This document shows, piece by piece, positions 3-56,234 of a DNA stretch of 59,098 bases (positions are counted from its first letter, which is position 1; each line of letters opens with the position of its first letter). The notes under the pieces were generated by a model that saw only the letters and a program-made list of their open reading frames with translations, searched no databases and was not told the origin of the DNA. The DNA comes from a virus (Duplodnaviria; Caudoviricetes), in IMG/VR virus record IMGVR_UViG_3300050011_000298, positions 1 through 59,098 of that record, one strand, 5' to 3'. The translations under genes were made by a program, and so were the position numbers.

Positions 3-3000
3 TCTGCGGCCTTTTTTGCGCCAGGAGCGACGGGTTCATTTTCCCCATCTTGGAGCACAGGCACTATGGGTATCACCGTCGCCCTCAAATCCGTCGGGAG
101 CGCAACGGTCCTTGTGGGTGTGAGTCCGCCAGTCGGAACTATCATGCGGGTCTATTATCATCTGCCCGCAGGTACTGGTCCAGGTTTCACTGGTCCGACC
201 GAGCCCATTTGGCCCACATCTATTGGCGGCATCGTCAACGACGGCGGAATTCAATGGACAAATTACGGGCCTGTCGAAGTCTGGTATCCGCAAACAAATT
301 ATCCAGTTCCTGTCGTGGTGTTGGATACGAACGGAAATTTGCAGCGCGCGGTTACTGCCACGAGTCCTGTACAGCCGTGGAATGCGGCAACTGGATATAC
401 TGTCGGGCAGATTGTTTCGTTCGGTGGGGGTTTTTGGATTAGCGTGTTTGCGGGAACCAATACAGGTGTTGCGCCGAGCAGTAATTATACGGTCCTTGTT
501 GGGGGGACGACAACAACCCCATATTGGGCTGTGGCGTCAAATCCCGCCGTCACAGGAGCCATCGCTCCAGTATGGAATACAAACGCCAACCCGCTGTTGG
601 GCAGCATCACGACCCAGGACGGCAGCTACACCTGGACCAACCTCGGGCAAGGTTCTCCGCTCGCGAGTTTCGGATATGCGTACGTCTACGCTTTCCGAAC
701 GGTGTACGGACATCTGACAACAGCAAGCCCGTTCAGCAACAATACTGGCGCGATTCTCGGACCACTGAACGGCAGCATTCAGTCGTTTTCCATCACCGCG
801 AATGTCGCGACGTTTTTCGGCAGCAACAACTTTATTCCTGGGAACATCTTTACGGTCGAGGGGTTGACGACAGGCACTTATTTTAACAACCAGATATTTA
901 CTGTCCTGACCGCACAACCGTCCTCCAGCTTTCCGTTGACCTCGACGCAAATCAGCGGCGGTACTACTCTAACCGTCAAAGCCATCAATCTTTTAGTCGC
1001 AGGACAGAGCGTGACATTCAGTAACTTGACGGACCCGAGCGCAACATGGCTGAACGGGTTGACGCTGATTGTGTCGGCGACAGGATTAAGCGGCACGCAG
1101 TTCGAAGTGACAGGGACATCTCCTCCTGCTGGAAACTACGGCCCGACGGCCACGACAGGCACAGTGCTCCTGAACGGAAGCTGGACTGCGACTTTCAACA
1201 ACGGTGGCGTGTTTGTACCGTTGACTTCGGATTCTGGGACTGCGGCTCCGCTTATCTCAACCATCACGGGCCAGGGCACATCTTTGCTAGATGGCCAGGG
1301 ATTTTCGTTGTGCAACTCCGTCGCAACCATCACAGGATTCTCAGTGACCGCGAACGTCCTGACGATTTTCGCCAGCAACAATTTCCAGCCTGGCATCTGG
1401 GTCACCCTCGGAGGTTTGACTACCGCGACGTTTCTGAACGGTCAGCAGTTCCAAGTCATCGCGGTAGATCAGTCGCTCGGAACCCAGAACACATGGTTTC
1501 AAATATTTTTTACGACTTCCGACTCGGTGCAGACGCTCGACGGAGGCACCGCTACATTCAACGCGGTGGAAATATATCGTCTCTCGGATGGCGGCGGCAC
1601 CTATTTGTTTGATGGCGCGGTCACGAACCCAGGCGCAGGAATTCAGTGGACCTTCGACGACTTTGTCATCGATCCTGATCTGGATATTCTTTTGATTGCT
1701 CCACTGTTCCATCAGAACGACCCGCCTCCTGGCGCACCTGGTTCATCCATTCCGCCGCTGGGCAAACCTGTAGGTACTATCAGCGTATACTGGCAGGGAC
1801 GGCTCTGGATGGTTGACGGAAACTATGTGTATTTCGATTCAGGACCAGATTGCACGAACGGTATTCCCGAGGAAGCGTGGGCTCCTGGGAATCGATTCAA
1901 GTTCTCAGGACCTGTGCTGAATCTGCAGCCAACTGCGGACGGCATCGGGATGCTTGTTTTCTTGGCCGACCGCGTGCAAGCAATTCTCGGCGGACCTGAG
2001 ACTATCAGCTTCTACGCTACAGATTTTTTGAGCAACTTCGGCGTTTCCAGTACGAACGCTGTCTTCCGCGACGGCTCGATTATTGGTTTGTTTACCACGC
2101 AGAAGCAGTACTTTGAATTGCTGGGCGCGCAGAAAGAAGATGTCGGGCTACATATTTCGGATTACTTGGCGACGAACGTCAATCCCGCCAAAGCGTATGT
2201 CACACTGCACCGTGACGGAACCGATGTGGGTTTATTCATCAGCAACGGCATAGACCGCATTTTGCGCTACGGGCCCAACGTCCCGTCATGGAGCGTTCCT
2301 GCGTTCCCATTATTCGGAGTAGGCGCGCTGAAATCGGTCGAGACATCGGTTGGAATTTATAGTTTACTGTTAGCGACGCCGACGGGCGGGGTGCGTCCGA
2401 CAAATCCGCAATTAGGGGTTGCAGCTACATACGCCCTTCTGGCGTGGAGCGGAATTACCAACACAGGCAGCACCGTGATTACGGGCGGCAACATCGGTTC
2501 GAGCCCGACCACAACCATTACAGGATTTCCTCCAGGCGTGATTATGTCCCCTGGGATTATCGACAATACCAACGCGGCTGCAGCGCATACGGCAGCGGTC
2601 GCGGCATACGCGCACTACGCTGGGTTGACATTCACCTCGCTCGGGACGGCTGTGAATTTGGCGACAAGCGGGAACGGCGCAAACAGCCATACATATCTTG
2701 CTGGAAATTATAGCTCAACATCCAGCTTCGACATCCCGAACACGTTCGGCGGGATAGTTCTTGATGCGCAAGGAAATGCGAACGCCCAGTTTGTGTTTTT
2801 CGCTGCGTCGACGACCACCCTCGAAGGCGGCTCGACCATCGCACTCATCAACGGCGCGCTTGCAAGCAACGTCATTTGGGTGGTCGGCAGTTCTTTCGTA
2901 TCCGTTGCGCCTTCGACTATGGTGGGGACAATCTTGGCGCAGATTTCTATCACACTGGGCGGCGGCACTTTTAACGGGATCGCATTGGCGGGCCTTGGCG

Positions 3001-3545
3001 GAAGTTCTGGCGCAGTGACAATCTCTACCGCCGAAATTATCTCGACAGGCAACACCCAGGCTCAATTGGACCAAGGGAATTATATCTATGTCCGCGATCT
3101 GACTTCATGGGGAGATGGCAACACCATAATCGGCGCCAACGACGGCACACCGTACGCACTTTGCGAAGTTGTCATCGGCAGCATCACGATGTCGCAACTC
3201 GGCGGAAAATTGTTCCCGTTGCAACATGTGATCGGATACTTCGACGCAGTCGGCACACTCAACCATGGCGGCCCGTCTTATCCCGACATCTGGGTGCTGC
3301 CGAACGAAGTCCAGCCCACCACCGCCGTCCCGTTTGTTTATTTGCCTGAGATTGTGCAAGAGCCCCCGACTGGGCAAAACAATCCGTCGTCCTCTATATT
3401 GGCGTTGAGGTGGAATGTATCAATGGTAAATAGTACACAGATGAGTCAGTATATTCACCACATGCAGTGCCGCGTTCGATTCGAGCCAGAAAACGCGCCG
3501 AATACAATCAAGGCGCTGGCGTTCGGTGAGGACCAATCGGTGTAA
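3..3545 (+). CDS. Large virion tail protein (5'-truncated) with a carbohydrate-binding-like motif, FCCH-like repeats and an inserted DUF3494 ice-binding-like domain
   Basis: Frame is open from the window edge (ORF track starts at 66). Thr/Gly/Ser-rich; WNAATGYTVGQIVSFGG motif; three N.F..G..VT..GLT...LNG..F.V repeats; propeller-like WQGRLW region; DUF3494 motifs at ~2406-3042. Precedes GNAT-like and ejection-like genes. Confidence 0.75.
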   Translation, partial: SAAFFAPGATGSFSPSWSTGTMGITVALKSVGSATVLVGVSPPVGTIMRVYYHLPAGTGPGFTGPTEPIWPTSIGGIVNDGGIQWTNYGPVEVWYPQTNYPVPVVVLDTNGNLQRAVTATSPVQPWNAATGYTVGQIVSFGGGFWISVFAGTNTGVAPSSNYTVLVGGTTTTPYWAVASNPAVTGAIAPVWNTNANPLLGSITTQDGSYTWTNLGQGSPLASFGYAYVYAFRTVYGHLTTASPFSNNTGAILGPLNGSIQSFSITANVATFFGSNNFIPGNIFTVEGLTTGTYFNNQIFTVLTAQPSSSFPLTSTQISGGTTLTVKAINLLVAGQSVTFSNLTDPSATWLNGLTLIVSATGLSGTQFEVTGTSPPAGNYGPTATTGTVLLNGSWTATFNNGGVFVPLTSDSGTAAPLISTITGQGTSLLDGQGFSLCNSVATITGFSVTANVLTIFASNNFQPGIWVTLGGLTTATFLNGQQFQVIAVDQSLGTQNTWFQIFFTTSDSVQTLDGGTATFNAVEIYRLSDGGGTYLFDGAVTNPGAGIQWTFDDFVIDPDLDILLIAPLFHQNDPPPGAPGSSIPPLGKPVGTISVYWQGRLWMVDGNYVYFDSGPDCTNGIPEEAWAPGNRFKFSGPVLNLQPTADGIGMLVFLADRVQAILGGPETISFYATDFLSNFGVSSTNAVFRDGSIIGLFTTQKQYFELLGAQKEDVGLHISDYLATNVNPAKAYVTLHRDGTDVGLFISNGIDRILRYGPNVPSWSVPAFPLFGVGALKSVETSVGIYSLLLATPTGGVRPTNPQLGVAATYALLAWSGITNTGSTVITGGNIGSSPTTTITGFPPGVIMSPGIIDNTNAAAAHTAAVAAYAHYAGLTFTSLGTAVNLATSGNGANSHTYLAGNYSSTSSFDIPNTFGGIVLDAQGNANAQFVFFAASTTTLEGGSTIALINGALASNVIWVVGSSFVSVAPSTMVGTILAQISITLGGGTFNGIALAGLGGSSGAVTISTAEIISTGNTQAQLDQGNYIYVRDLTSWGDGNTIIGANDGTPYALCEVVIGSITMSQLGGKLFPLQHVIGYFDAVGTLNHGGPSYPDIWVLPNEVQPTTAVPFVYLPEIVQEPPTGQNNPSSSILALRWNVSMVNSTQMSQYIHHMQCRVRFEPENAPNTIKALAFGEDQSV

Positions 3546-4636: not shown

Positions 4637-5068
4637 ATGAGCGAATGGACTTATAGGCTGGCAGAAATTTCAGATTCATCTCTTTTCGTTGAGTGGGTGA
4701 AATCCAACCCCCTGGTGGACCCCGCAGACGTGCATCGCGCTATCGGCGGGGGTAATCCTGCCTGCCTCACGCTCGTAGCCTGCTTGGATGGGAATCCTGT
4801 CATGTTTGCACCCGTATACCCAACCTGGCATTTGGCCTGTCTATCGATATCGCCAACCACTTCGGCAGACGAGCGCAAGCAAGCCCTGAAGGGGCTGTTG
4901 GAGTTTGGCTGCGGCCTCGCCGTGCAGCAGAACATCCGAGAAATAAACACACTCACGCGCAGTTCTTATCCGATGAGCCATATTGCCGCGCGCCTAGGCT
5001 TTGAGCGCGATGACAGGGAACTATTCCGCTTCACGATACCCGCAAAGCAGCCCGAGTCATCAAAATAA
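4637..5068 (+). CDS. GNAT-fold protein (internal virion protein A-like position)
   Basis: C-terminal ARLGF motif; lies between tail and ejection-like genes. Confidence 0.5.
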   Translation: MSEWTYRLAEISDSSLFVEWVKSNPLVDPADVHRAIGGGNPACLTLVACLDGNPVMFAPVYPTWHLACLSISPTTSADERKQALKGLLEFGCGLAVQQNIREINTLTRSSYPMSHIAARLGFERDDRELFRFTIPAKQPESSK

Positions 5069-5087
5069 GACTATCCTTTCCATAAGT
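5068..5087 (+). promoter_or_regulatory. Putative phage late promoter WGACT-N8-CATAAGT (copy 1 of 12)
   Basis: AGACT atcctttc CATAAGT, 15 nt before ATG 5103. Confidence 0.8.
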
Positions 5088-10924: not shown

Positions 10925-10944
10925 AGACTTCTTTTTCCATAAGT
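10925..10944 (+). promoter_or_regulatory. Putative late promoter (copy 2)
   Basis: AGACT tctttttc CATAAGT before ATG 10959. Confidence 0.8.
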
Positions 10945-11856: not shown

Positions 11857-12283
11857 GTTGTCGGCGAAGTTTTTGAATTTCAAGCCTCAGTTTTGCAACC
11901 ACTTCTTCTTGCTGGTGTTTGGATCGATGTACCCACTGCAGGTTTTCGGGCATAAATCCAATCAATCGATCCACGATGTGAAGTTGGTAGGTTTTGTCGG
12001 GGCGGCGTCCTAAGTTCGCTATTATCCATTCCGCGCCCGCTCCATAGGACCCACCTTTGTCTGGGTTCCATCCAGCATAAAAAGGCATTCCGCGATAATA
12101 CTGATCCCCATTTCGAATCAGATGGTAGTGAGTGCGAACTGAGATATGTTCGGAATGCGCAGCAATCCATGGGCGTGATCGTTCAGGGTTTTTAGCGTGT
12201 CGAGCACGAGATTCACAACTGCCGCAAATCCCTTTCGCGCGCGCGAGTTTAGGACAACTTGGAGTTATACATACCTTTTTCAT
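11798..12283 (-). CDS. HNH-related homing endonuclease
   Basis: C.TPSC....AKGIC..C N-terminus; LG.RP...YQLHIVDR..GFMPENLQW. Confidence 0.7.
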   Translation of the reverse strand: MKKVCITPSCPKLARAKGICGSCESRARHAKNPERSRPWIAAHSEHISVRTHYHLIRNGDQYYRGMPFYAGWNPDKGGSYGAGAEWIIANLGRRPDKTYQLHIVDRLIGFMPENLQWVHRSKHQQEEVVAKLRLEIQKLRRQLKYLFPDVSPSRAPQPLSE

Positions 12284-13545
12284 GGCCGACTACCCCAAAA
12301 AGTTTGTTTTATTTTAGGCACGTCCAATTGTATCACGCTGGTGGGATCGGCGTCAATTAGGAATTGTCGCCCAGACGGGAAATCTACGCGAACCTGTACA
12401 CCTTTAGCCGTGATTTTTAGGATGGTTCCGTGGTATCCGCTCGCTGGTCCTGTTAAAATTCGAACGAACTGGCCTACACGACACTTCATAATATGTGAAG
12501 GAGTGTGCTCCGCTATCATTTTGAGGATGTCGGCATGAGGCACCTGAACGGCGTGCAAGTACATCCCTTCGTCATCGCAGATGGTAGACATTTCCCCCAT
12601 CCCACGAATCTTCTGCAGCTTGCGCACTATCGCAGGCGTGACGCTTCTTGCAAATAAATAACCAAAAGTGAGTTCGCCCTCGGCGTTCAGCGGAGCGAAA
12701 ATTTGCGCAGGCTTTTTGCCGAATATTTTCTTACCTTGTTCGCGGAGTGTCGGCATAATCTGCTGCATGCGCCCCTCAGATGAAATTTCCAACATCTCCC
12801 ACGGCGTGTCGCCGAGCGATTCGGTGCGGTTGAAGGATAGCAGCGACGAGGTCTCAGATGGCGGTGCATCGAACCGCAAAGTCTTGACACGGCGATTTCG
12901 TGCCATGCAGCGTTTACTCAACCCCGCACCTGTCAGTGACGCCTGGTGTGTCAAATTGTGAAGATAAGACCCTACTGCTGCAGCACGAAGGTCTTTGCTG
13001 GCCGACAAATGAGCGATAGCAGGTCGGAAGATTTTGCGAATGGCGGGTACAGGTGCTCCGAATGATTTGGCGACGACAGCGTAGTTTTGACTGTTGGCAT
13101 ATGCGAGAATCAGGTCCGTCAGTGATCCGTACGGCGTCGATTCTACGCACTCTTTGCGTAGAATGAAGCGGATAACCTCCGCATCTGGATTTGGCCCCAA
13201 GACGATCAAGGACCCAAGGGCTCTTTCAATTATTCGCAATGATTGCCATACGCGGGTCTGAATGAAGCCATGGACGCGCCCGATGAAACTCTGGGACTTT
13301 CCGAGCAACCAATACTCGGCGAATAACTCTTGAAACTCAGGGCGCAGCCGTTCGAGCAACGGCAGCAACTTCTCAGGATAATCCTGCGCGAATGCTTTGA
13401 AGTCGATCATGCTGCTGGATTCTGGTAAAGTTTCAGCGGACAGATTTGGGTTAATTTCTTGGCGATTGAAAGCCTCGAAACTGGCCGCGTCCGCTACATG
13501 AGTCATGTAGGAATCTGCGCCGCGCGTGTCATCACCTTTGGACAT
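12280..13545 (-). CDS. Transcription factor: sigma-region-4-like HTH domain(s) fused to NusG-like NGN+KOW
   Basis: LERLRPEFQELFAEYWLLGKSQSFIGRVHGFIQTRVWQSLRIIERAL (sigma4 pattern); FGYLFA (NGN FPGY-like); VGQFVRILTGPASGYHGTILKI...VRVDFPSGR (NusG KOW). Start could be as far upstream as 13620. Confidence 0.7.
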   Translation of the reverse strand: MSKGDDTRGADSYMTHVADAASFEAFNRQEINPNLSAETLPESSSMIDFKAFAQDYPEKLLPLLERLRPEFQELFAEYWLLGKSQSFIGRVHGFIQTRVWQSLRIIERALGSLIVLGPNPDAEVIRFILRKECVESTPYGSLTDLILAYANSQNYAVVAKSFGAPVPAIRKIFRPAIAHLSASKDLRAAAVGSYLHNLTHQASLTGAGLSKRCMARNRRVKTLRFDAPPSETSSLLSFNRTESLGDTPWEMLEISSEGRMQQIMPTLREQGKKIFGKKPAQIFAPLNAEGELTFGYLFARSVTPAIVRKLQKIRGMGEMSTICDDEGMYLHAVQVPHADILKMIAEHTPSHIMKCRVGQFVRILTGPASGYHGTILKITAKGVQVRVDFPSGRQFLIDADPTSVIQLDVPKIKQTFWGSRP

Positions 13546-13616
13546 CCGCCTGCGCCAGCAGCCCCAACTCCGTCGCCCGAGGCTGCGCGGGGACCTCCAT
13601 CCACATGAGCGACTCT

Positions 13617-13931
13617 TCATAAAGTTCGGTACCCCTTCTTGGTGTTTTTCGCCTGTCGAACATAGAATTGGACGAGAGCAAAGAAGAGTTTCCCGTGCGG
13701 GAGATTCGGTTCAGCCACATGGCACATCTCGTGGATCAGAACTTTGTGCCAGCGTTTCGTCGAGGCGTTGATGAAGATAATAGGTAGGACAAAATCCTCA
13801 TCCCACATTGTGATACCAAAGTTGTTCGGCATCGTATCGTCGTCAATGAATGAAACCATCGCCTTGGGGAGACGGTTCTGCCACAACAATTTATTGAGAC
13901 GGCGATATTCGACGGCTGGGCTTTGGCTCAT
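13617..13931 (-). CDS. SprT-like zinc metalloprotease
   Basis: Y..LN...W.N.LP N-terminus and VLIHEMCH...HG..F. Confidence 0.8.
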   Translation of the reverse strand: MSQSPAVEYRRLNKLLWQNRLPKAMVSFIDDDTMPNNFGITMWDEDFVLPIIFINASTKRWHKVLIHEMCHVAEPNLPHGKLFFALVQFYVRQAKNTKKGYRTL

Positions 13932-14560
13932 TTCCTGATACTACGCTGGCCGAGGACGGCTGTCAACTGTTTTCTGCGAAGTGCCTCTCGATGCCGTCCC
14001 TGTACTGTTTGCGTCGGGCGGGCTCAGCCTTCCCAGACTCTTGCGGGACGGTCTCGACGCGGTCTTGCCAACCCTCGACACGACCAGGAAGTTTCGGCGG
14101 GAACAGGAACGCCAGAACGCGCGCAACTACAGCAGACTGATTAATTTTATAACGCATATTAGCCTCTCATTTCGGGATGTGGCGCGCCGCGCGCGCCGTC
14201 TCCAGTACCATCGCTTGAATTCTATAACGCCAGCCCGCATCATCGGGTCCATCCTGCGTTGTCGTCTCGCCAGAGCGGTTGAAAGTCGGTTCCGCAATCG
14301 TTGACATACCCTCGCGGCGCCGCGTCTTCCTTCAGTCGTCGACGCAGGTCGATCAACACTGCGGTGAAAAATCGATCAAACCGTTGCTGTTTGGTTTCCA
14401 TATGATCCTTTCGTTTTTCCGAATAGCGGAGTGCGTTGTCCACAGACAGGACATCTCAGCGGTGCCTCGGCGGCAAGCAACTCCATCTTCGGTTGTCCGC
14501 TGCAGATGAATCCAACACAATTACGGTGGACGGCTGTCACTTCATGTGCGAATGTTACGG

Positions 14561-15270: not shown

Positions 15271-15300
15271 TTGACAAGCAGTACGGAGGGTTGGTACTAT
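15271..15300 (+). promoter_or_regulatory. Sigma70 promoter of the tmRNA gene
   Basis: TTGACA-18 nt-TACTAT. Confidence 0.75.
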
Positions 15301-15304
15301 CGGG

Positions 15305-15750
15305 GTGTCACGAAAGTGACTGGTGGAGGACGAAATGGTTCCAGCGAGCGCGCTTGTCGAATGAAGACTATCCCGAGGACTGCAGCCAAGGGATGTGCTC
15401 GGTGTTCGAAAGACGCGCTCGCTGGGGCCGTTCCGCCCCAAAATTACGACCGTAAAACGGCTGGGGCTACTCATTTGGACGGGGCTGCAAAGCCCCCAGG
15501 TCCACCCTGCCGTCCAGCACGGATGTTCGGATGCCCAAAGGGCCGACGATCTAACCACTGGGCGGTACGGTGGGCCTGAATTAGTTTCGACAGATGAGAA
15601 TAGTGACAGTGCTTGTTCGGTTCGTCCTGACAACGACGTAAAACTAGATCAAACCTAAATGCGAAAACTAAACTCGCACAGGTTGTGATGTTCGCCAGTC
15701 GCACAAACGTGGCTTCGGCCCGACGTTTGGCAATGGCAGCATAACCACCG
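15305..15750 (+). ncRNA. ssrA: Circularly permuted (two-piece) tmRNA
   Basis: Acceptor piece ends GGAC-GGGGC-TGCAAA-GCCCC-CAGGTCC-A-CC (15477-15506), upstream of the coding piece starting GGGCCTG-AATTAGTTTCGAC (15572). The 7-bp acceptor stem has G3.U70; P2 pairs CAGATGAG/CTCATTTG; pk1-like pseudoknot; TAAAT|GCG resume site at 15661; tag AKTKLAQVVMFASRTNVASARRLAMAA-stop (15744). Outer ends are approximate. Confidence 0.88.
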
Positions 15751-15790
15751 CCCGAGGTCGCCCGAAAGGTGGCCTCGGGATTCTAATTTT
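15751..15790 (+). terminator. Hairpin/terminator after tmRNA
   Basis: CCCGAGGTCGCC-CGAA-AGGTGGCCTCGGG followed by ATTCTAATTTT. Confidence 0.6.
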
Positions 15791-19482: not shown

Positions 19483-20343
19483 TTAATACTTTTCTGCTTC
19501 GATGCGCGAAATGAAAAAATGAATGCCGCCTCCGCACTCTACCCAACGGTCTTCATTCCAGACGTTGCAAGTGACGGTCTCGCCTTTGCGATAGGTAGTT
19601 TTGTTGTCGTGCGTTGAGATGCCGACTTCGGCCCCAAATACTTGAATTACTTTGACAAATTCGGCTCGGCACTTGCGTCCCGAAGCATTTGATTTGCGGG
19701 CTTTGGCTGGAATCAAAAGTTTGACAATGATATTGTTTCGGCATTTTTTCCAGCCAATGATTGGACCTTCAGGTAAGATGTTCAACTCTGCAGCAGCCCG
19801 TTCGGGGATATTCTCGGCTCCGTACAGGACGGCTCCGTTCAGGTCGGCTCCGTTCAGGTTGGCTCTGTACAGGTTGGCTCCGTTCAGGTTGGCTCCGTTC
19901 AGGTTGGCTCCGTTCAGGTCGGCTCCGTTCAGGTCGGCTCCGTTCAGGACGGCTCTGTACAGGTTGGCTCCGTTCAGGTCGGCTCCGTTCAGGTTGGCTC
20001 TGTACAGGTTGGCTCCGTTCAGGTCGGCTCCGTTCAGGTTGGCTCTGTACAGGTTGGCTCCGTACAGGTTGGCTCCGTACAGGACGGCTCCGTTCAGGTT
20101 GGCTCCGTTCAGGTTGGCTCCGTTCAGGTCGGCTCCGTTCAGGTTGGCTCTGTACAGGTTGGCTCCGTTCAGGTTGGCTCCGTTCAGGTTGGCTCCGTTC
20201 AGGTCGGCTCCGTTCAGGTTGGCTCTGTACAGGTTGGCTCCGTTCAGGTTGGCTCTGGCTTTTACCGCAGCAACAACCAAATCTTTGATGGTATCGACAC
20301 CCGCTGAATATAAGATCAGTCCATAAATTGATTTTAATTCCAT
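19483..20343 (-). CDS. Pentapeptide-repeat protein with C-terminal DUF5758-like domain
   Basis: About 29 A(N/D)L(N/Y)(G/R) repeats; IVKLLIP..A.RS.A.GRKCRA...W.EC.GGIHFF. Confidence 0.9.
   Translation of the reverse strand: MELKSIYGLILYSAGVDTIKDLVVAAVKARANLNGANLYRANLNGADLNGANLNGANLNGANLYRANLNGADLNGANLNGANLNGAVLYGANLYGANLYRANLNGADLNGANLYRANLNGADLNGANLYRAVLNGADLNGADLNGANLNGANLNGANLYRANLNGADLNGAVLYGAENIPERAAAELNILPEGPIIGWKKCRNNIIVKLLIPAKARKSNASGRKCRAEFVKVIQVFGAEVGISTHDNKTTYRKGETVTCNVWNEDRWVECGGGIHFFISRIEAEKY
19816..20256. repeat. 15-bp tandem array (GGCTCCGTTCAGGTT variants) encoding the pentapeptide repeats
   Basis: Near-perfect 15-mers seen directly. Confidence 0.95.
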
Positions 20344-20365
20344 TTGCGTTGCCTCCATGTAAATC

Positions 20366-20409
20366 ATTATAGGATAGAAGTCTGAAATTAGCAATAGTAC
20401 GAAAGTACT
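20366..20409 (-). promoter_or_regulatory. Sigma70-type promoter with GTAC-N4-GTAC box
   Basis: AGTACTTTCGTACT-A-TTGCTA-17-TATAAT. Confidence 0.75.
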
Positions 20410-20444
20410 GGGGCCAGGCAAACTGAACCTGACCCCGTACTTGA

Positions 20445-21665: not shown

Positions 21666-22007
21666 ATAGTTAGCACCGCTCTAGTGGGATTTGACTCCAG
21701 AGTCATAGTACTAAAATCTGCAGGATTGTCAAGGAAATACCACAAAAAGAAATCGCTTGACACGCAGTGCTTGATTTTGGTACTCTGCGCGTGCAGGAGA
21801 AAATCATGCCAGAACCAGCGATACATGCAGACGCATTCAAATTGTTTTGTGGATTGACAGGACGTGACCGGACAAAATATTCAAACGTCCCGCTGATGTT
21901 GGAATTCGCAGAGTGGTATCATACGGAGATGGTTCGTCTCTTCGCTATTGAGCCGCAATCAAAACCTGTTCCATCTCGGCGCCCGAACTGCTATTGAGGA
22001 GAACACT

Positions 22008-22367
22008 ATGAACGATCAATGTAATTTTTGCGGCAGTTTCGAAGATATTCTGCCCTGTTCCCATTGTCTGCGGGATAGCTGCAAGCGGTGCCAATTAAAT
22101 CACGCGCCTTTTTGCGAGCAGGTACAGAAGAGCATTCAGCGCGGCGAAGGTCCGACCGTTGCGAACGCTGGTCTGCCTGAACATCGGGCAGGGCATGTAG
22201 CCCCGCCGTTCACGCCTGCCGACCGTCCGTTTATGGTCAGTTCGCGAATCGTCGAGTCTACGCTGATCCAGATTCCTTCGGCGGCGCCCGTTGAGTGGGA
22301 AACGCAGGTCATTTCGCCGACAGACGTGGGGCTGCTGGCCGTCGAAGATTTGCTAGGCGAAGAGTAA
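22008..22367 (+). CDS. Cys-rich zinc-finger hypothetical protein
   Basis: GAGGAG RBS; CNFC, CSHC, CKRC. Confidence 0.55.
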   Translation: MNDQCNFCGSFEDILPCSHCLRDSCKRCQLNHAPFCEQVQKSIQRGEGPTVANAGLPEHRAGHVAPPFTPADRPFMVSSRIVESTLIQIPSAAPVEWETQVISPTDVGLLAVEDLLGEE

Positions 22368-22386
22368 GACTTCCTATTCCATAAGT
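22367..22386 (+). promoter_or_regulatory. Putative late promoter (copy 3)
   Basis: AGACT tcctattc CATAAGT before GTG 22399. Confidence 0.8.
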
Positions 22387-25201: not shown

Positions 25202-25221
25202 AGACTTTTTAATCCATAAGT
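25202..25221 (+). promoter_or_regulatory. Putative late promoter (copy 4)
   Basis: AGACT ttttaatc CATAAGT. Confidence 0.75.
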
Positions 25222-29107: not shown

Positions 29108-30025
29108 ATGAGCCGCTCAACGATCAGCGCTTTCAAACTCTTTGAGTTGTTCCCTGACGAGCCTTCCGCCCGCAAGTATCTGGAAGGTCGCCTCTGGCCG
29201 AATGGCGTTACCTGTCCTGAATGCAAGTCCAAAGAGCGGATCACGACGCGCAAGGACGGATTCTATCGCTGCAATGCCTGCAAACTGGACTTTACAGTGC
29301 GAACCAAGACTATCTTTGAACGGTCGCATGTTCCCCTGCATAAGTGGCTCTATGCCATGTATCTGCTCGTTACGGCCCGCAAGGGCATCTCTAGCCTGCA
29401 ACTGGGCAAAGAGATAGGTATCACTCAGAAGTCTGCTTGGTTCGTCCTACACAGGCTCCGTGAGGCTTGCGGAACCAAACTGGAGTTGCTTCAAGGTACC
29501 GTAGAAGTAGATGAGACATTCTTTGGTGGCGAAGAAAACAATCGGCATATGTACGACCGCATCCACAAACCGCGAGAGCGCACCGAAAAGACTATCGTAG
29601 TCGGGATGCGCCAACGCGGAGGGAACACCGTCGCCAAGATCGTGCCTAGCACTGGCGGACTGGCCCTTCGCGGTGCGATCCATGAGAATGTCGCACCCGG
29701 TTCCCGTATCTTGTCCGATGACTACGGCAGTTATACCGCCCTTCCGAAAGAGGGATTCCAGCACGATTCAGTAAAGCATGTTGCCGGGGAATACGTTCGC
29801 GGCGACGTTCACACGAACGGGATTGAATCCGTTTGGGCAGTAATGAAGCGCGGGATGCATGGCGTCTACCACCATGCCGATAAGAAGCACATGGGCCGGT
29901 ACGTGAATGAGTTTACATTCCGACTGAATCAAGGCAACGTGGCTCGGCACACAACAGAGCGGCTGGACAGTTTCGTGGACGCCATAGCAGGCAAGCGTTT
30001 GACCTTCGAGGCATTAACCCGATGA
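29108..30025 (+). CDS. IS1595-family DDE transposase
   Basis: Zn ribbon CPEC..CNAC; VEVDETF, SDD..SY, HTNGIESVW, YVNEF.FR.N. Confidence 0.95.
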   Translation: MSRSTISAFKLFELFPDEPSARKYLEGRLWPNGVTCPECKSKERITTRKDGFYRCNACKLDFTVRTKTIFERSHVPLHKWLYAMYLLVTARKGISSLQLGKEIGITQKSAWFVLHRLREACGTKLELLQGTVEVDETFFGGEENNRHMYDRIHKPRERTEKTIVVGMRQRGGNTVAKIVPSTGGLALRGAIHENVAPGSRILSDDYGSYTALPKEGFQHDSVKHVAGEYVRGDVHTNGIESVWAVMKRGMHGVYHHADKKHMGRYVNEFTFRLNQGNVARHTTERLDSFVDAIAGKRLTFEALTR

Positions 30026-32197: not shown

Positions 32198-32217
32198 TGA
32201 CTTTCCATTTCATAAGT
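32198..32217 (+). promoter_or_regulatory. Putative late promoter (copy 5)
   Basis: TGACT ttccattt CATAAGT. Confidence 0.75.
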
Positions 32218-35295: not shown

Positions 35296-36882
35296 ATGTC
35301 AAAGATAGTAAAGCATGGAGCAGATGCACGAGATGCGATTTTGCGCGGTGTGAATTTTCTCGCGGACGCGGTTTGTTTAACGGAAGGTCCGAGAGGCAGG
35401 ACCGCAATTCTCGGGCAACGTGCGTTAGGACAAACTCCTAGAGTGTCAAGGGATGGGGTGTCTGTTTGCAACTATGTGGATTGCGCCGACCCAACAGAGC
35501 AGATGGGGTCTGACCTTGTTCGCGAAGCCAGCCAGAAAACGGATAATATTGTCGGAGACGGCTCCACCGCCACCGTCACTCTCGCTCGCGCAATGATTCA
35601 ATCTGGTTTTGACTTCATCAAGAACGGTGCAAACCCTATAGCCCTAGAGCGCGGGCTGCAGAAAGCAGCACAAGCAATCATCCGCCGCGTGCAAGAAACT
35701 GCGGTGATATGCGAGGGTGAAAAAATTTTTCAAGTGGCGACGGTTGCGGCCCACGGGGATGCGGAGATAGGCCGCCTTGTATCCGACGCGGTTCAGAAAG
35801 CTGGGCCAAACGGTATTGTAACCGCCGAACCATCTTCCACATCTGAAACTTATGTCGAGACAGTAGCTGGAATTGAGTTGTTGAAGTCGAATCTTTTGCA
35901 CGGCGTTTTTATCACGCACCCTGAAACAATGTCGGCTGAACTGGCCGACTGTCGCATCTTGTTATGGGAGGGTGTGATTGCCACGGCGAAGTCACTCGTG
36001 CCGATTTTGAAACAAGTCGCAGAGACAGGCACCCCGCTGATTATCGTTGCGGGCGGCTATGAACAGGAAGCCTTATCGGTGCTCATCAACAACAAGGCGA
36101 AACTTGCCTTGCCGCTGATTGCCGTTCGGATGGAGGCATACGGAGAGCGCAAAAAAGAAGTTATGAGAGACATCGCCGCGTTGACAGGCGGTATAGCTTA
36201 CACCGAAGACATGGGGATGAAGATTGAAAGTATCGTCGTGAATAAACTTGGCTCTGCGCGCAAGGTCATCACGAATATGTCCAAGACCCAGATTATCGAT
36301 GGTAAAGGCAATCAAGCAGAAGTGGCTGGGCGCGTGGCGCATATTCAACAATGCATCGAGGCTGCCGCCCCTGCAGAGCGTAATCCCCTGCGCCAGCGTC
36401 TTGCGGCGCTACTCGGAGGCATTACCGTAATTAAAGTGGGCGACGTAACTCTCACGGCCATGGAAGAAAAGAAAGACCGCGTTGTTGATGCAATGTCTGC
36501 GGCGAAAGCTGCGGTCGAATCTGGAATCGTTCCTGGTGGGGGCACCGCATTAATGCAGGCGTCCACCATCCTCTTGGGGTTGCGTTTTTCAGATGCCGAG
36601 ATGCGCGGGGTAGATGTAGTGCATATCGCATGTCGGGCCGTAGCGAGACAAATTGCCGAGAACGCAGGAATCAGCGGCGACCTTATTGTGGCTCAACTGA
36701 TGGCAACACCAGACCTGGGATATAATGCGGCGTCCGAAGTATTTGAAAATCTCGTTGACGCGGGGATTGTCGACCCTGCACAGGTTGTGATTGAGGCTCT
36801 ACGAAACGCTGCCTCTGTCGCAGGAAGTTTCATCACTATGGGATGCACTGTCGCAGAGGTTCAGGAGAAGCCCAATGTCTAA
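35296..36882 (+). CDS. groEL: Phage-encoded chaperonin GroEL
   Basis: GPRGR, SRDGVSV, GDGSTAT, EKKDRVVDA, GIVPGGG, GIVDP. Confidence 0.97.
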   Translation: MSKIVKHGADARDAILRGVNFLADAVCLTEGPRGRTAILGQRALGQTPRVSRDGVSVCNYVDCADPTEQMGSDLVREASQKTDNIVGDGSTATVTLARAMIQSGFDFIKNGANPIALERGLQKAAQAIIRRVQETAVICEGEKIFQVATVAAHGDAEIGRLVSDAVQKAGPNGIVTAEPSSTSETYVETVAGIELLKSNLLHGVFITHPETMSAELADCRILLWEGVIATAKSLVPILKQVAETGTPLIIVAGGYEQEALSVLINNKAKLALPLIAVRMEAYGERKKEVMRDIAALTGGIAYTEDMGMKIESIVVNKLGSARKVITNMSKTQIIDGKGNQAEVAGRVAHIQQCIEAAAPAERNPLRQRLAALLGGITVIKVGDVTLTAMEEKKDRVVDAMSAAKAAVESGIVPGGGTALMQASTILLGLRFSDAEMRGVDVVHIACRAVARQIAENAGISGDLIVAQLMATPDLGYNAASEVFENLVDAGIVDPAQVVIEALRNAASVAGSFITMGCTVAEVQEKPNV

Positions 36883-37665: not shown

Positions 37666-37685
37666 AGACTTTCAATTCCATAAGT
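37666..37685 (+). promoter_or_regulatory. Putative late promoter (copy 6)
   Basis: AGACT ttcaattc CATAAGT. Confidence 0.8.
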
Positions 37686-42394: not shown

Positions 42395-42646
42395 ATGCTT
42401 ATCGAAATTATTCTCGTCGGCACCGCAGTATTGTCCGTGGTGAACTTCATTCGGGGCTTCAAAACAGGTACGCCTGGGCCCCAAGGTCCTGCAGGTCCTG
42501 CGGGCTCGCAAGGCGTGCCAGGACCCCAAGCAGCGCATCAGTTGGGCGCGGAACACGCTCTGTGTGGTGGATGCGGGAGAGTAGTCGCGCACTTCAGCCT
42601 AACCCCGAAAGGGTTACGTTGCGCAAACTGCGCCCCAGCGGAATAA
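42395..42646 (+). CDS. TM, collagen-like and zinc-ribbon mini-protein
   Basis: N-terminal TM; GTPGPQGPAGPAGSQGVPGPQ; CGGC...CANC. Confidence 0.7.
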   Translation: MLIEIILVGTAVLSVVNFIRGFKTGTPGPQGPAGPAGSQGVPGPQAAHQLGAEHALCGGCGRVVAHFSLTPKGLRCANCAPAE

Positions 42647-42665
42647 GACTATCCTTTCCATAAGT
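42646..42665 (+). promoter_or_regulatory. Putative late promoter (copy 7)
   Basis: AGACT atcctttc CATAAGT. Confidence 0.8.
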
Positions 42666-43948: not shown

Positions 43949-43968
43949 TGACTTTCTTTTCCATAAGT
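43949..43968 (+). promoter_or_regulatory. Putative late promoter (copy 8)
   Basis: TGACT ttcttttc CATAAGT. Confidence 0.8.
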
Positions 43969-43983
43969 AGATGAGAAACTCAG

Positions 43984-44715
43984 ATGTTCATCTACGTCAT
44001 AGTTTGCAGCGAGACCCTGAAGATTTACGTCGGGCAACACAAGGGAACCAATCTGCAGAAATATTTGCAGACCAAGTTCTCAAACGCGAAGAGAAACTCA
44101 GGGACGCGGTCTCACCTTTTTGCGGCAATGAAAAAACACCCTCACGAATCGTGGAGCATTCATCCACTTATCTCAGGCGTTGAAATCAGACAAGAACTGG
44201 ATGAACTAGAAAAGCATTTCATCCGAGCGTTGAACGCACAACATCCCGATGTCGGTTATAACATCTGTGACGGCGGCGAAGGTTTCACGGGACCCCATAC
44301 AGAGAAGTGGCGACAAGAAACACTCACGCGAGTCAATGAGTATTGGGCAAATCCCGATAGTCGGATGCAGCGAAGCCAACAAACTACAGAACGCTGGCAA
44401 AGCGGCGAGCTACGAAAGGCGCACGAGATTTGGCGAGCAGAGAATCCAGAAAAGTTGGCATATTGGACGGATAAAAAACAGTCCGCCGAGTCCAACCAAA
44501 AACGCAGCGAGCAACAGAAAATATCTATGTTAGGGAACACGAACAGGCTTGGGCAAAAGCAGTCGCCTGAAGAAATAGCCAAGCGGGTCGCCAAATTGAA
44601 AGGTGTCCCGTTTTCCGACGAGCGCAAAGCCAAACTGAAAGCGTCGCACCAGACTTGCTCTTGTCCCGCGCATGTGCTGAAGCGTCAACAACAAGACTTC
44701 TTAACCCATAAGTAG
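43984..44715 (+). CDS. GIY-YIG homing endonuclease with NUMOD3-like repeats
   Basis: FIY......KIYVGQ...E..FI.......GYN...GG; KQSAES..K.S. Confidence 0.88.
   Translation: MFIYVIVCSETLKIYVGQHKGTNLQKYLQTKFSNAKRNSGTRSHLFAAMKKHPHESWSIHPLISGVEIRQELDELEKHFIRALNAQHPDVGYNICDGGEGFTGPHTEKWRQETLTRVNEYWANPDSRMQRSQQTTERWQSGELRKAHEIWRAENPEKLAYWTDKKQSAESNQKRSEQQKISMLGNTNRLGQKQSPEEIAKRVAKLKGVPFSDERKAKLKASHQTCSCPAHVLKRQQQDFLTHK
44694..44713 (+). promoter_or_regulatory. Putative late promoter (copy 9)
   Basis: AGACT tcttaacc CATAAGT overlapping the end of the GIY-YIG gene. Confidence 0.75.
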
Positions 44716-47599: not shown

Positions 47600-47619
47600 A
47601 GACTTCTTTTCTCATAAGT
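47600..47619 (+). promoter_or_regulatory. Putative late promoter (copy 10)
   Basis: AGACT tcttttct CATAAGT before the portal ATG. Confidence 0.8.
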
Positions 47620-50305: not shown

Positions 50306-50325
50306 AGACTTTCTAATTCATAAGT
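50306..50325 (+). promoter_or_regulatory. Putative late promoter (copy 11)
   Basis: AGACT ttctaatt CATAAGT then GAGGAG. Confidence 0.8.
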
Positions 50326-52600: not shown

Positions 52601-52620
52601 AGACTATCCTTTCCATAAGT
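52601..52620 (+). promoter_or_regulatory. Putative late promoter (copy 12), capsid gene
   Basis: AGACT atcctttc CATAAGT. Confidence 0.8.
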
Positions 52621-55563: not shown

Positions 55564-55639
55564 GGGCGTGTAGCTCAATCAGGAGAGCGCCGCATTTGCA
55601 ATGCGGAGGCAGTCAGGGCAGAACTGACCATGTCCACCA
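55564..55639 (+). tRNA. tRNA-Ala(UGC), atypical T-loop GGCAGAA
   Basis: GGGCGTG/CATGTCC acceptor with G3.U70; CCGCA-TT TGC AA-TGCGG; encoded CCA. Confidence 0.9.
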
Positions 55640-55862
55640 AATTTACGAGCGAGCCCAGCGTCGCACCCACTCCACGTAATTGTGGTAAGATAGTCTGGGT
55701 CGGTAGGCAGCCCCTCGAAGGTCCCACGCGAAACGGGACGCCGTCTCGTAAAAGAAGTAGAAGCCCACGGATGGCGCGCGGCAGCAAGAATAGGGTGACA
55801 ATCGTGCGCAGGTTTCATTCCTGCGACGTAGAACTCGGGCTGCCGCGCAGACCATCATCAGT

Positions 55863-55940
55863 AGGGGAATAACGCAGTCTGGCCAGCGTGCTCGCCCTGG
55901 AAGCGAGAAGTCGCAGGTTCGAATCCTGCTTCCCCTACCA
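55863..55940 (+). tRNA. tRNA-Pro(UGG), atypical C33/A37
   Basis: AGGGGAA/TTCCCCT; CTCGC-CC TGG AA-GCGAG; GTTCGAATC; CCA. Confidence 0.85.
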
Positions 55941-55948
55941 TTTTCTAA

Positions 55949-56022
55949 GCGAGGCTGGCCTATTGGCAGGGCATCTGGCTTCCACCCAGAACAGCCGAGT
56001 TCGATTCTCGGGTCTCGCTCCA
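55949..56022 (+). tRNA. tRNA-Gly(UCC)
   Basis: GCGAGGC/GTCTCGC, U73; TCTGG-CT TCC AC-CCAGA; CCA. Confidence 0.9.
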
Positions 56023-56031
56023 ATTTTCTGC

Positions 56032-56105
56032 AGGCCGTAAGTGTTACGGTAGCACATTCGGCTCCAACCCGAGGGGAGGGTGTTCAATTCACCCATGGCC
56101 TGCCA
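56032..56105 (+). tRNA. tRNA-Trp(CCA)
   Basis: AGGCCGT/ATGGCCT, G73; TTCGG-CT CCA AC-CCGAG; CCA. Confidence 0.9.
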
Positions 56106-56114
56106 AATTTGTGC

Positions 56115-56143
56115 TTGACAGCGCGTGGCGCGCGCGGTATGAT
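56115..56143 (+). promoter_or_regulatory. Sigma70 promoter for the last tRNA and the phosphatase
   Basis: TTGACA-17-TATGAT. Confidence 0.8.
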
Positions 56144-56151
56144 GTTTTTAT

Positions 56152-56234
56152 GCAGGGTTGGCTCAGCGGCGACAGCACTAGTTTTGTAAACTAGCGGGAA
56201 ACCCACGCAGGTTCGAGTCCTGCACTCTGCTCCA
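56152..56234 (+). tRNA. tRNA-Thr(UGU) with a long variable arm
   Basis: GCAGGGT/ACTCTGC; CTAGT-TT TGT AA-ACTAG; variable CGGGAAACCCAC; GTTCGAGTC; CCA. Confidence 0.85.

Follow-up and report, generated by a model that had tools for sequence, protein, structure and literature searches.

A candidate late-gene factor in uncultivated phages: tandem sigma-region-4/Q21-like domains predicted to be joined to a NusG-like module

Introduction

Which step of transcription would a phage protein serve that looks like part of a sigma factor at one end and like NusG at the other? The question is raised by a gene in IMGVR_UViG_3300050011_000298, a virus record (Duplodnaviria; Caudoviricetes) of IMG/VR which we analysed over its full length of 59,098 nucleotides (nt) and refer to as the window. 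The window has an estimated completeness of 59% and holds terminase, portal-like and GroEL-like genes. A first-pass annotation, made from the sequence alone, had placed a helix-turn-helix (HTH) like that of sigma region 4, a possible second HTH, an NGN-like segment and KOW segments on the minus strand between positions 12280 and 13545. It had proposed a DNA-site-loaded antiterminator or sigma substitute that would read either a late motif with 12 copies in the window or a so-called GTAC box. We find that the protein very probably has an architecture of two sigma4/Q21-like HTHs in tandem followed by a NusG-like NGN-KOW module. The reading that it serves as a late-gene factor, with the tandem HTHs on the two boxes of the late motif and the NGN on the host RNA polymerase, we put at slightly below even odds (about 0.45).

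Architecture of the protein family

The gene occupies 12280..13620 on the minus strand as a single open frame, with the stop codon at 12280-12282, and encodes 446 amino acids (aa) from an ATG at 13620. A second ATG at 13545 gives a product of 421 aa; this is the window protein, P0001, and residue numbers below follow it.

We first give the matches of the window protein on its own. In Pfam it matched KOW5_SPT5 at E 0.029 and KOW at E 0.063 (13.6 bits against a cut-off of 22.3), with no sigma or NGN match even at E<=10. There was no match to Sigma70_r4 or Sigma70_r4_2 (PF04545/PF08281) and none to sigma region 2 (PF04542) at E<=10, and the NGN family PF02357 was matched neither by the protein nor in a six-frame search of the window. 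The KOW chain of Thermus NusG was found in PDB at E 0.91, NCBIfam gave weak matches to NusG_myco and UpxY, and PHROGs gave nothing useful (PHROG 6386 was not matched at E<=1). Judged by these searches the window protein taken singly is not beyond chance; the observation is significant at the level of the family.

At least 148 metagenomic proteins match the window protein over its full length at E<=0.001. Among the 120 matches listed, identity ranges from 48 to 99% and query coverage from 90 to 100%, and five of them are named NusG by one source; many full-length relatives lie on phage contigs of ~97 kb. We aligned 39 proteins of the fused family (A1, mean column identity 51%) and searched the profile against 1.84 billion representatives, which gave 327 matches. 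Among the best 150 of these 327 rows, ~84 carry only the N-terminal module (proteins of 240-270 aa, profile ~11-218) and ~35 only the C-terminal module (190-755 aa, profile 236-419), the latter matching with their own first ~190 residues. The matches of the N-module stop near profile position 218-230 and those of the C-module begin at 236. Profile E-values of ~1e-27 to 1e-14 link the stand-alone N-modules to the window protein. One repetitive protein of 1959 aa (P0158) was rejected as spurious. A pattern scan of 185,579 species genomes for the fused family returned 116 pattern matches and 0 relatives, a viral-contig scan that used only P0151 as query found nothing, and among the INPHARED phages only Tunturi_5 matches either half.

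For the N-module we studied an alignment of 30 stand-alone relatives (A2). Against Pfam, Phage_antitermQ was matched by 16/30 members (best 2.4e-6), Sigma70_r4 by 10/30 (6.4e-5) and Sigma70_r4_2 by 9/30 (7.9e-6), and other HTH families scored below these three. The matches fall at two places, aa ~58-106 and 141-188 of the stand-alone proteins, and an hhalign comparison puts the two in register with each other (P 0.0099). The first corresponds to HTH1 (aa ~58-112, 13210..13374, minus strand), where relatives match Sigma70_r4 and Phage_antitermQ and where the columns Q96, T97, R98, W100, Q101, L103 and R104 of A1 make up a nearly invariant recognition helix. The second corresponds to HTH2 (aa ~140-185, 12991..13128, minus), which in weak hhalign alignments falls on the region 4.2 HTH of RpoD (572-601) and RpoE (154-180). 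HTH1 is preceded by a conserved segment (aa 1-57, 13375..13545, minus) that the fused proteins (A1) share with the stand-alone N-modules (A2) and that matches no family. A second large search listed 120 N-module relatives, none of which has a name other than 'hypothetical'; precomputed Pfam assignments put PF06530 on 16 of them and PF08281 on three. A full-length PF06530 match was not found in the family: one relative exceeded the cut-off (26.9 against 26 bits), with only ~57-110 of the 118 positions covered. As a lead only, an Atlas feature search with residues 1-240 of P0001 returned viral Sigma70_r4 clusters at 0.90.

The sigma4 and Q21 matches agree with each other, because PF06530 is the Q21 family (according to the accessible portion of PMC9388147) and the Q21 fold is related to that of sigma region 4, especially in extracytoplasmic function (ECF) sigma factors (from the available text of 10.1101/651190). 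We read the N-module as holding two sigma-R4/Q21-type domains in tandem. By profile comparison, the N-terminal ~220 aa hold two HTH domains of sigma-region-4/Q21 type and no sigma region 2.

The two modules are joined by a basic linker (aa ~186-245, 12811..12990, minus), in which the borders of the profile matches and the composition place the fusion junction near aa 228-233. It is followed by the NGN-like domain (aa ~246-345, 12511..12810, minus), the presumed RNA-polymerase clamp-binding part, and by the KOW domain (aa ~352-410, 12316..12492, minus), which is weak in the window protein and significant in the family profile. The chain ends in a conserved tail (12283..12315, minus) with F416 and G418 invariant and W417 nearly invariant in A1. 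We searched a profile of 20 C-modules (A3) against PDB and found the KOW of Spt5 at 1.3e-7, Aquifex NusG at 4.7e-7, the KOW of Thermus NusG at 8.3e-4 and E. coli NusG at ~1e-3. One NusG chain covered A3 positions 5-151 at E 0.04, and the ribosomal protein uL24, which has a KOW, was also among the matches. In the direct hhalign comparison, A3 aligned with E. coli NusG over 99 columns (NusG 67-174, E 1.9e-5, probability 78%), and A1 placed P0001 294-404 on NusG 66-178 in the same register at E 0.0017. In the known layout of E. coli NusG, the span 66-178 begins within the NGN domain, crosses the linker and reaches into the KOW. A KOW follows the NGN-like feature, in the order and spacing of NusG.

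Searched individually against Pfam, 8/20 C-module members matched a KOW family (KOW5_SPT5) and 4/20 the NusG NGN family (PF02357), the best of the latter being relative P0159 at E 0.007 over positions 2-93 of 93. PHROG 6386, 'transcription antiterminator', was matched by two stand-alone C-modules (2.4e-7 and 1.2e-6) and by the fused protein P0039 (4.9e-4). A low-confidence Atlas model of P0039 (predicted template modelling score, pTM, 0.38) had NusG clusters as all three of its listed structural neighbours (TM <0.5); an Atlas feature search with P0039 gave no usable match. The assignment of the C-terminal ~175 aa as a NusG-like NGN plus KOW is well supported by these comparisons, with the NGN half as the weaker part. 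All four segments of the first-pass annotation were located where it had put them within 12280-13545 (minus), and the two halves are of the kinds it had named, an HTH region at the N-terminus and a NusG-like region at the C-terminus.

Split and fused forms

The occurrence of each module on its own was followed in a viral-contig scan with 11 C-modules (A4), which yielded 38 loci, many of them on contigs of 200-460 kb (jumbo phages). The only cultured phage matched is Tunturiibacter phage Tunturi_5 (308 kb, Acidobacteriota host), which carries both modules as separate genes. Its C-module is gp25, annotated as 'transcription antiterminator', and its N-module is gp346 (L010 5754-6488), which matches A2 at 7.5e-100; the two genes lie ~32 kb apart across the record origin. 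The annotation of gp346 as 'exonuclease' is probably wrong, given the match to the tandem-HTH family.

We searched 17 of the jumbo records among the 38 C-module loci for the N-module and detected it in nine. It was present in 6/6 records that are >=90% complete, and all eight records without it are 42-78% complete. An unrooted tree of C-modules, built from every second row of A1 (20) and 19 rows of A6, parts the fused from the solo forms by one branch with a support of 100/100. A single event therefore suffices, which on this unrooted tree may have been a fusion or a fission.

For one complete record (G008) we modelled the complex of the split pair, using residues 1-200 of the C-module with A6 and the N-module with A5. 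The pair scored 0.89 in three runs, and the best of three controls scored 0.12. This mark was met by 58/80 solved complexes and 2/110 mismatched pairs, counts that are rough for custom alignments. The runs agreed in at least 94% of contacts, and the predicted local distance difference test (pLDDT) of the partners was at least 72. To the modelled interface the N-module contributes its C-terminal tail and HTH1 helices, and the C-module its first six residues, its KOW strands and its own C-terminal tail; the interface lies close to the site of the covalent junction in the fused protein. The model suggests that the split N- and C-modules probably bind each other. Searches of PDB returned only NusG, Spt5, uL24 and SigF pieces among named families, and we know of no solved complex of this kind.

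In the jumbo phages the solo NusG-like gene tends to follow a clamp-loader gene (DNA polymerase III), either immediately or at a distance of one gene. We tested the upstream open reading frames (ORFs) at nine of the 38 IMG/VR loci and in Tunturi_5 and found this arrangement in 7/10 (L001, L046, L049, L053, L062, L064 and L067), a neighbourhood reminiscent of T4, in which late transcription is linked to the replication clamp. Many solo NusG-like proteins carry C-terminal extensions. In P0174, P0181, P0188, P0195, P0216 and P0270 these contain a repeated helical-looking unit that belongs to no family, and the extension of P0224 has weak intein and LAGLIDADG-like matches.

The late motif

The motif WGACT-N8-CATAAGT has 12 exact copies in the window, all on the plus strand, in line with the 12 copies of the first-pass annotation. 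Allowing up to two mismatches we counted 15 matches, against a shuffle mean of 4.9, and 0/100 shuffles reached 15. The copies, each a putative target of the protein, lie at 5068..5087, 10925..10944, 22367..22386, 25202..25221, 32198..32217, 37666..37685, 42646..42665, 43949..43968, 44694..44713, 47600..47619, 50306..50325 and 52601..52620. The copy at 10925..10944 heads a small plus-strand islet within the minus-strand block and adjoins the gene, and the copy at 47600..47619 stands directly 5' of the portal-like gene. A purine-rich run follows each copy, and for most copies a start codon comes 11-15 nt on.

To follow the motif beyond the window we turned to five relatives of 97-100% completeness. 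Plain k-mer counting missed the motif there; iteration of a position weight matrix recovered it on one strand in 5/5 relatives, with counts in the six genomes G000-G005 of 12, 15, 19, 3, 8 and 13. Relatives of the ~97-kb group with the gene have the late motif as well, an association that the first-pass annotation had proposed to check. Across the family the upstream box AAGACT stays constant, and the downstream one drifts, with forms from CATAAGT to CTATAG. By crude gene calls in the six genomes, an ORF of 50 aa or more starts within 40 nt of 62/70 copies, and for 11/70 copies the upstream neighbour is absent or on the other strand. A promoter-like role is therefore favoured by the placement close to starts and by the 11 copies that head a unit. 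A reading of the motif as a hairpin (ACTT...AAGT), made by eye, was dropped since variants lose the pairing.

We then compared the boxes with the HTH domains of the six genomes. The recognition helix of HTH1 is near-invariant; in HTH2 the turn that precedes this helix is variable, most of all in G005, whose downstream box differs. This pattern fits an assignment of HTH1 to the constant upstream box and of HTH2 to the drifting downstream box.

The protein might also have a role outside transcription, with its HTH and KOW/SH3-like folds serving, for example, DNA packaging, replication or, at the motif, the control of translation. The motif adjoins the purine-rich, ribosome-binding region, KOW occurs in uL24 as well, and the C-module gene stands beside the clamp-loader gene at most of the jumbo loci tested. 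The NusG alignment, however, spans NGN strand 3, the linker and the KOW in one register, which is the layout of NusG and not that of uL24, and we regard such a role as very improbable.

Promoter and expression of the gene

Directly upstream lies a SprT/YgjP-like metallopeptidase gene (13617..13931, minus; Pfam YgjP-like 26.3 bits, SprT-like 25.2 bits), the first gene of the operon. Its stop codon forms an ATGA overlap with the ATG at 13620. Because of this overlap, and because the extension is kept among relatives, ATG 13620 is probably the true start of the gene, in place of the ATG at 13545 that the first-pass annotation had chosen. The probable extension of 25 aa (13546..13620, minus) contains nine Arg/Lys, no Asp/Glu and three Trp. 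Its motif stands in frame in the window and in L002, L003, L004, L005 and L006, and so in five of the seven loci of relatives; L007 has a different N-terminal extension and L008 has none. From its very basic, Trp/Gly-rich composition the extension appears to resemble an arginine-rich peptide.

A sigma70-like promoter, TTGACA-17-TAGTAT, is found at 13938..13966 (minus) upstream of the SprT-like gene and the fusion gene. The window contains three sites of the form TTGACA-N16-18-TASTAT, where 0.02 are expected; the other two are at 15271-15300 (plus) and 21705-21732 (minus). Upstream of the gene, TTGACA-N17-TAnnnT occurs in 7/7 loci (the window and six relatives). GTAC lies inside the spacer of 2/3 window promoters and also of several of the relatives' copies. 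The sites of this class are probably early promoters and probably account for the GTAC box, which is thus unlikely to be a target of the fusion protein: GTAC appears to belong to the spacer of canonical promoters, one of which would drive this very gene. The earlier interpretation holds in part, in that its architecture is borne out by the profiles, the split and fused pattern and the complex model, and its GTAC target is not. Because a sigma70-type promoter sequence stands upstream, we infer early expression of the gene by the host polymerase with its primary sigma.

An early protein of this composition might instead be a decoy that shuts off the host, with the NGN on the clamp helices and a sigma4-like domain on the flap; it would block the host sigma and so silence host and early genes, with no activating role. 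NGN and sigma region 2 use the same clamp-helix site, and the early-type promoter would suit such a role. A pure inhibitor, on the other hand, needs neither two domains of DNA-binding type nor a KOW that is conserved to its last residues, and the late genes would still need transcription, for which no candidate was found. We therefore judge the decoy to be quite improbable, though less so than a role outside transcription.

Other transcription machinery in the relatives

We searched the five near-complete relatives for other transcription machinery. A T7-type polymerase (PF00940, searched with no positive control) was found in 0/5, and the beta-prime domain (PF00623) in 0/5 and in 0/7 jumbo records. 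A true sigma region 2 was found in none of the five; the single weak match, in G003, falls within a UvrD-type helicase and was discarded. In G001, nine large ORFs were matched to a helicase, a primase-helicase, DUF7178, weakly to an adaptor, or to nothing, and to no polymerase family. Ordinary sigma genes are present in 3/7 jumbo records. The separate phage sigma or RNA polymerase that could have explained late transcription in place of the fusion protein was thus not detected in the five relatives. As no polymerase was detected, the phages seem to depend on the host polymerase, which would suit a NusG-like factor. A clamp loader was likewise found in 0/5 of these ~97-kb relatives, for which reason we rejected for this phage the idea of a sliding clamp as tether of the factor. 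Besides, the UvrD-type helicase of G001 (L018 927-3293) has Hint and intein-splicing matches and probably contains an intein.

Proposed function

From these sequence-based findings we propose the following course of events. Early in infection the host RNA polymerase would make the protein from its sigma70-type promoter. The two HTH domains would bind AAGACT-N8-YATAAGT directly 5' of the late genes, with the invariant HTH1 on the invariant upstream box and the variable HTH2 on the drifting downstream box. In the manner of NusG and RfaH, the NGN would by homology dock on the clamp helices of the host RNA polymerase, and the factor would confer late-gene specificity and processivity on the polymerase. 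We favour loading close to the promoter in the manner of Q or RfaH, which would yield a polymerase resistant to pauses and terminators; promoter recognition itself is our second choice.

Several observations count against a late-gene factor of this kind. On the side of the protein, no curated Pfam cut-off is reached by the window protein itself and the NGN matches of the relatives stay below the Pfam cut-off (17.3 against 22.2 bits). The RfaH alignment, in the same register by hhalign, reaches only E 0.15. In PDB, A2 retrieves a single match, SigF sigma4 at E 0.37, and not Q21, and the comparisons with E. coli RpoD and RpoE are weak (hhalign E 0.016-0.14). On the side of the DNA, the link between protein and motif is one that we infer, and the correspondence between HTH2 and the downstream box rests on one change among six genomes. 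In the split-gene jumbo phages (five IMG/VR records and Tunturi_5) the motif occurs only at control level, and any target there must therefore differ. Furthermore, the motif is a contiguous block of ~25 bp that ends at the probable transcript start, in the style of promoters of single-subunit phage polymerases; the PF00940 search was made without a positive control and matched no control genome; and several large ORFs of the relatives belong to no family (1464, 789, 688, 664 and 605 aa), with a further ORF of 1917 aa matching DUF7178 only.

The last three points would suit an explanation in which the motif is the promoter of an unrecognised phage RNA polymerase and the fusion protein acts elsewhere, for example in early or middle transcription by the host polymerase. 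T7-type promoters have a similar motif block and a purine-rich start, and in the window the block is likewise followed by a purine-rich start, with the start codon 11-15 nt on. Against this stand the 5/5 near-complete relatives in which no polymerase family was found; moreover, NusG-type factors are to our knowledge known only with multisubunit polymerases. We consider this explanation improbable, though less so than the decoy.

It is also conceivable that the protein is a general elongation factor that replaces host NusG in all transcription of the phage, for instance against Rho or pausing. Its sigma4-like domains would then grip the polymerase at the flap or dock, or the host sigma, and the motif would be read by something else. 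Sigma R4 and Q21 touch the polymerase flap or dock besides DNA (according to the accessible portions of PMC9388147 and 10.1101/651190). The recognition helices of both HTHs are highly conserved, as they would be for a conserved protein partner, both modules are kept in jumbo phages that lack this motif, and the ordinary sigma genes in some of those phages point the same way. On the other hand, a tandem HTH pair and a two-box motif are a natural fit, no other candidate for a reader of the motif was found in the five near-complete relatives, and gene and motif travel together in the ~97-kb group. A general elongation factor is unlikely in our view, but it is the strongest of the alternatives.

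The late-gene factor could finally be given a more radical form, as a sigma-free initiation factor (in jumbo phages, the pair of proteins) in which the NGN replaces sigma region 2 on the clamp helices and the sigma-R4-like pair reads AAGACT-N8-YATAAGT. If this were true, the core polymerase would start late transcription with the factor and keep it as an elongation clamp, so that the roles of sigma and NusG would be merged. We regard this form as improbable and rank it behind both the unrecognised polymerase and the general elongation factor.

Comparison with known systems

The closest likeness of the C-module is to NusG, RfaH, LoaP and UpxY, with which it shares NGN, linker and KOW in the same order and register. 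RfaH, LoaP and UpxY are two-domain proteins whose recruitment depends on a signal within the elongation complex, carried by non-template DNA or by RNA; paralogs of the RfaH type are further marked by an alpha-helical KOW that is autoinhibited. In contrast to these paralogs, the protein described here has ~245 additional N-terminal residues with two HTH domains, a divergent NGN and an origin in phages of lytic type. The part of a NusG review that was available to us states that the core domain structure is retained in most homologs; the one extra domain that it cites is DII of Thermotoga maritima NusG.

With the Q21 antiterminators the protein shares the HTH-type fold related to sigma R4. Q21 binds a two-part DNA element beside the late promoter, with two protomers contacting the binding element and the polymerase, and then rides the polymerase (as far as given in the accessible text of 10.1101/651190). 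Where Q21 employs two protomers, the present protein has two domains on one chain, and the part acting on the polymerase is expected to be the NusG-like module and not a Q torus.

An HTH of region 4 type is also shared with sigma-70 and with the 'minimal' phage sigma factors; minimal single-HTH sigma factors and gp33 are covered in the accessible part of the jumbo-phage review PMC7824862, in which there is no mention of NusG or KOW. In contrast to sigma-70, the present protein has no region 2, carries two region-4-like domains with a NusG-like partner, and would read boxes that are 8 bp apart and not ~17.

In T4 late transcription (gp55, gp33 and the gp45 clamp), small proteins take both sigma sites and read a short late promoter. 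The likeness lies in phage-made factors acting on the host core polymerase, and the clamp-loader neighbour of the jumbo C-module recalls the sliding-clamp link. No sequence relation to the T4 proteins was found, however, and the ~97-kb relatives are without a clamp loader. PHROG 6386, finally, is alike in matching the C-module; its model has 179 positions and so does not include the N-terminal HTH part.

The first-pass annotation knew of no described sigma4-NusG fusion, and the literature gave us none either: a search that covered few subscription journals returned no NusG-like protein joined to sigma4/Q-type domains and no split pair. The Tunturi virus paper makes no mention of the transcription terms sought.

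Other features of the window

A permuted (two-piece) transfer-messenger RNA (tmRNA) gene lies at 15448-15744 (plus; Rfam RF04321, 76.5 bits, E 6.3e-13), in agreement with ARAGORN. It stands directly behind the promoter at 15271-15300 (plus), ends at a 12-bp terminator-like hairpin at 15751-15779 and may offer a clue to the host group. At 55564-56234 (plus) tRNA genes are clustered, five by Rfam and four by ARAGORN (Pro, Gly, Trp, Thr). We further observed an IS1595-family transposase at 29108-30025 (plus; DDE_Tnp_IS1595, 4.8e-42), a protein of the early block with pentapeptide repeats and a C-terminal DUF5758 domain at 19483-20421 (minus), and the GroEL-like chaperonin at 35296-36882 (plus; PHROG 5725, 2.8e-115). 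An ORF of at least 1180 aa at 3-3545 (plus) has an ice-binding-like domain (1e-29) and is probably a tail fibre or spike.

Implications

NusG/Spt5 is the sole transcription factor common to all cellular life. Here a NusG-like module appears to be tied to two reading heads of the type that binds double-stranded DNA, covalently in the ~97-kb phages and probably by contact in the jumbo phages. If the late-gene reading is true, the protein would represent a third phage route, besides Q and N, for loading a processivity factor at defined DNA sites, and it would form an evolutionary bridge between the worlds of sigma/Q and NusG. A system for studying it in culture is available in Tunturi_5 with its host in Acidobacteriota. 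For a large, uncultivated group of soil-type phages, the factor and its motif would then amount to a simple regulatory switch.

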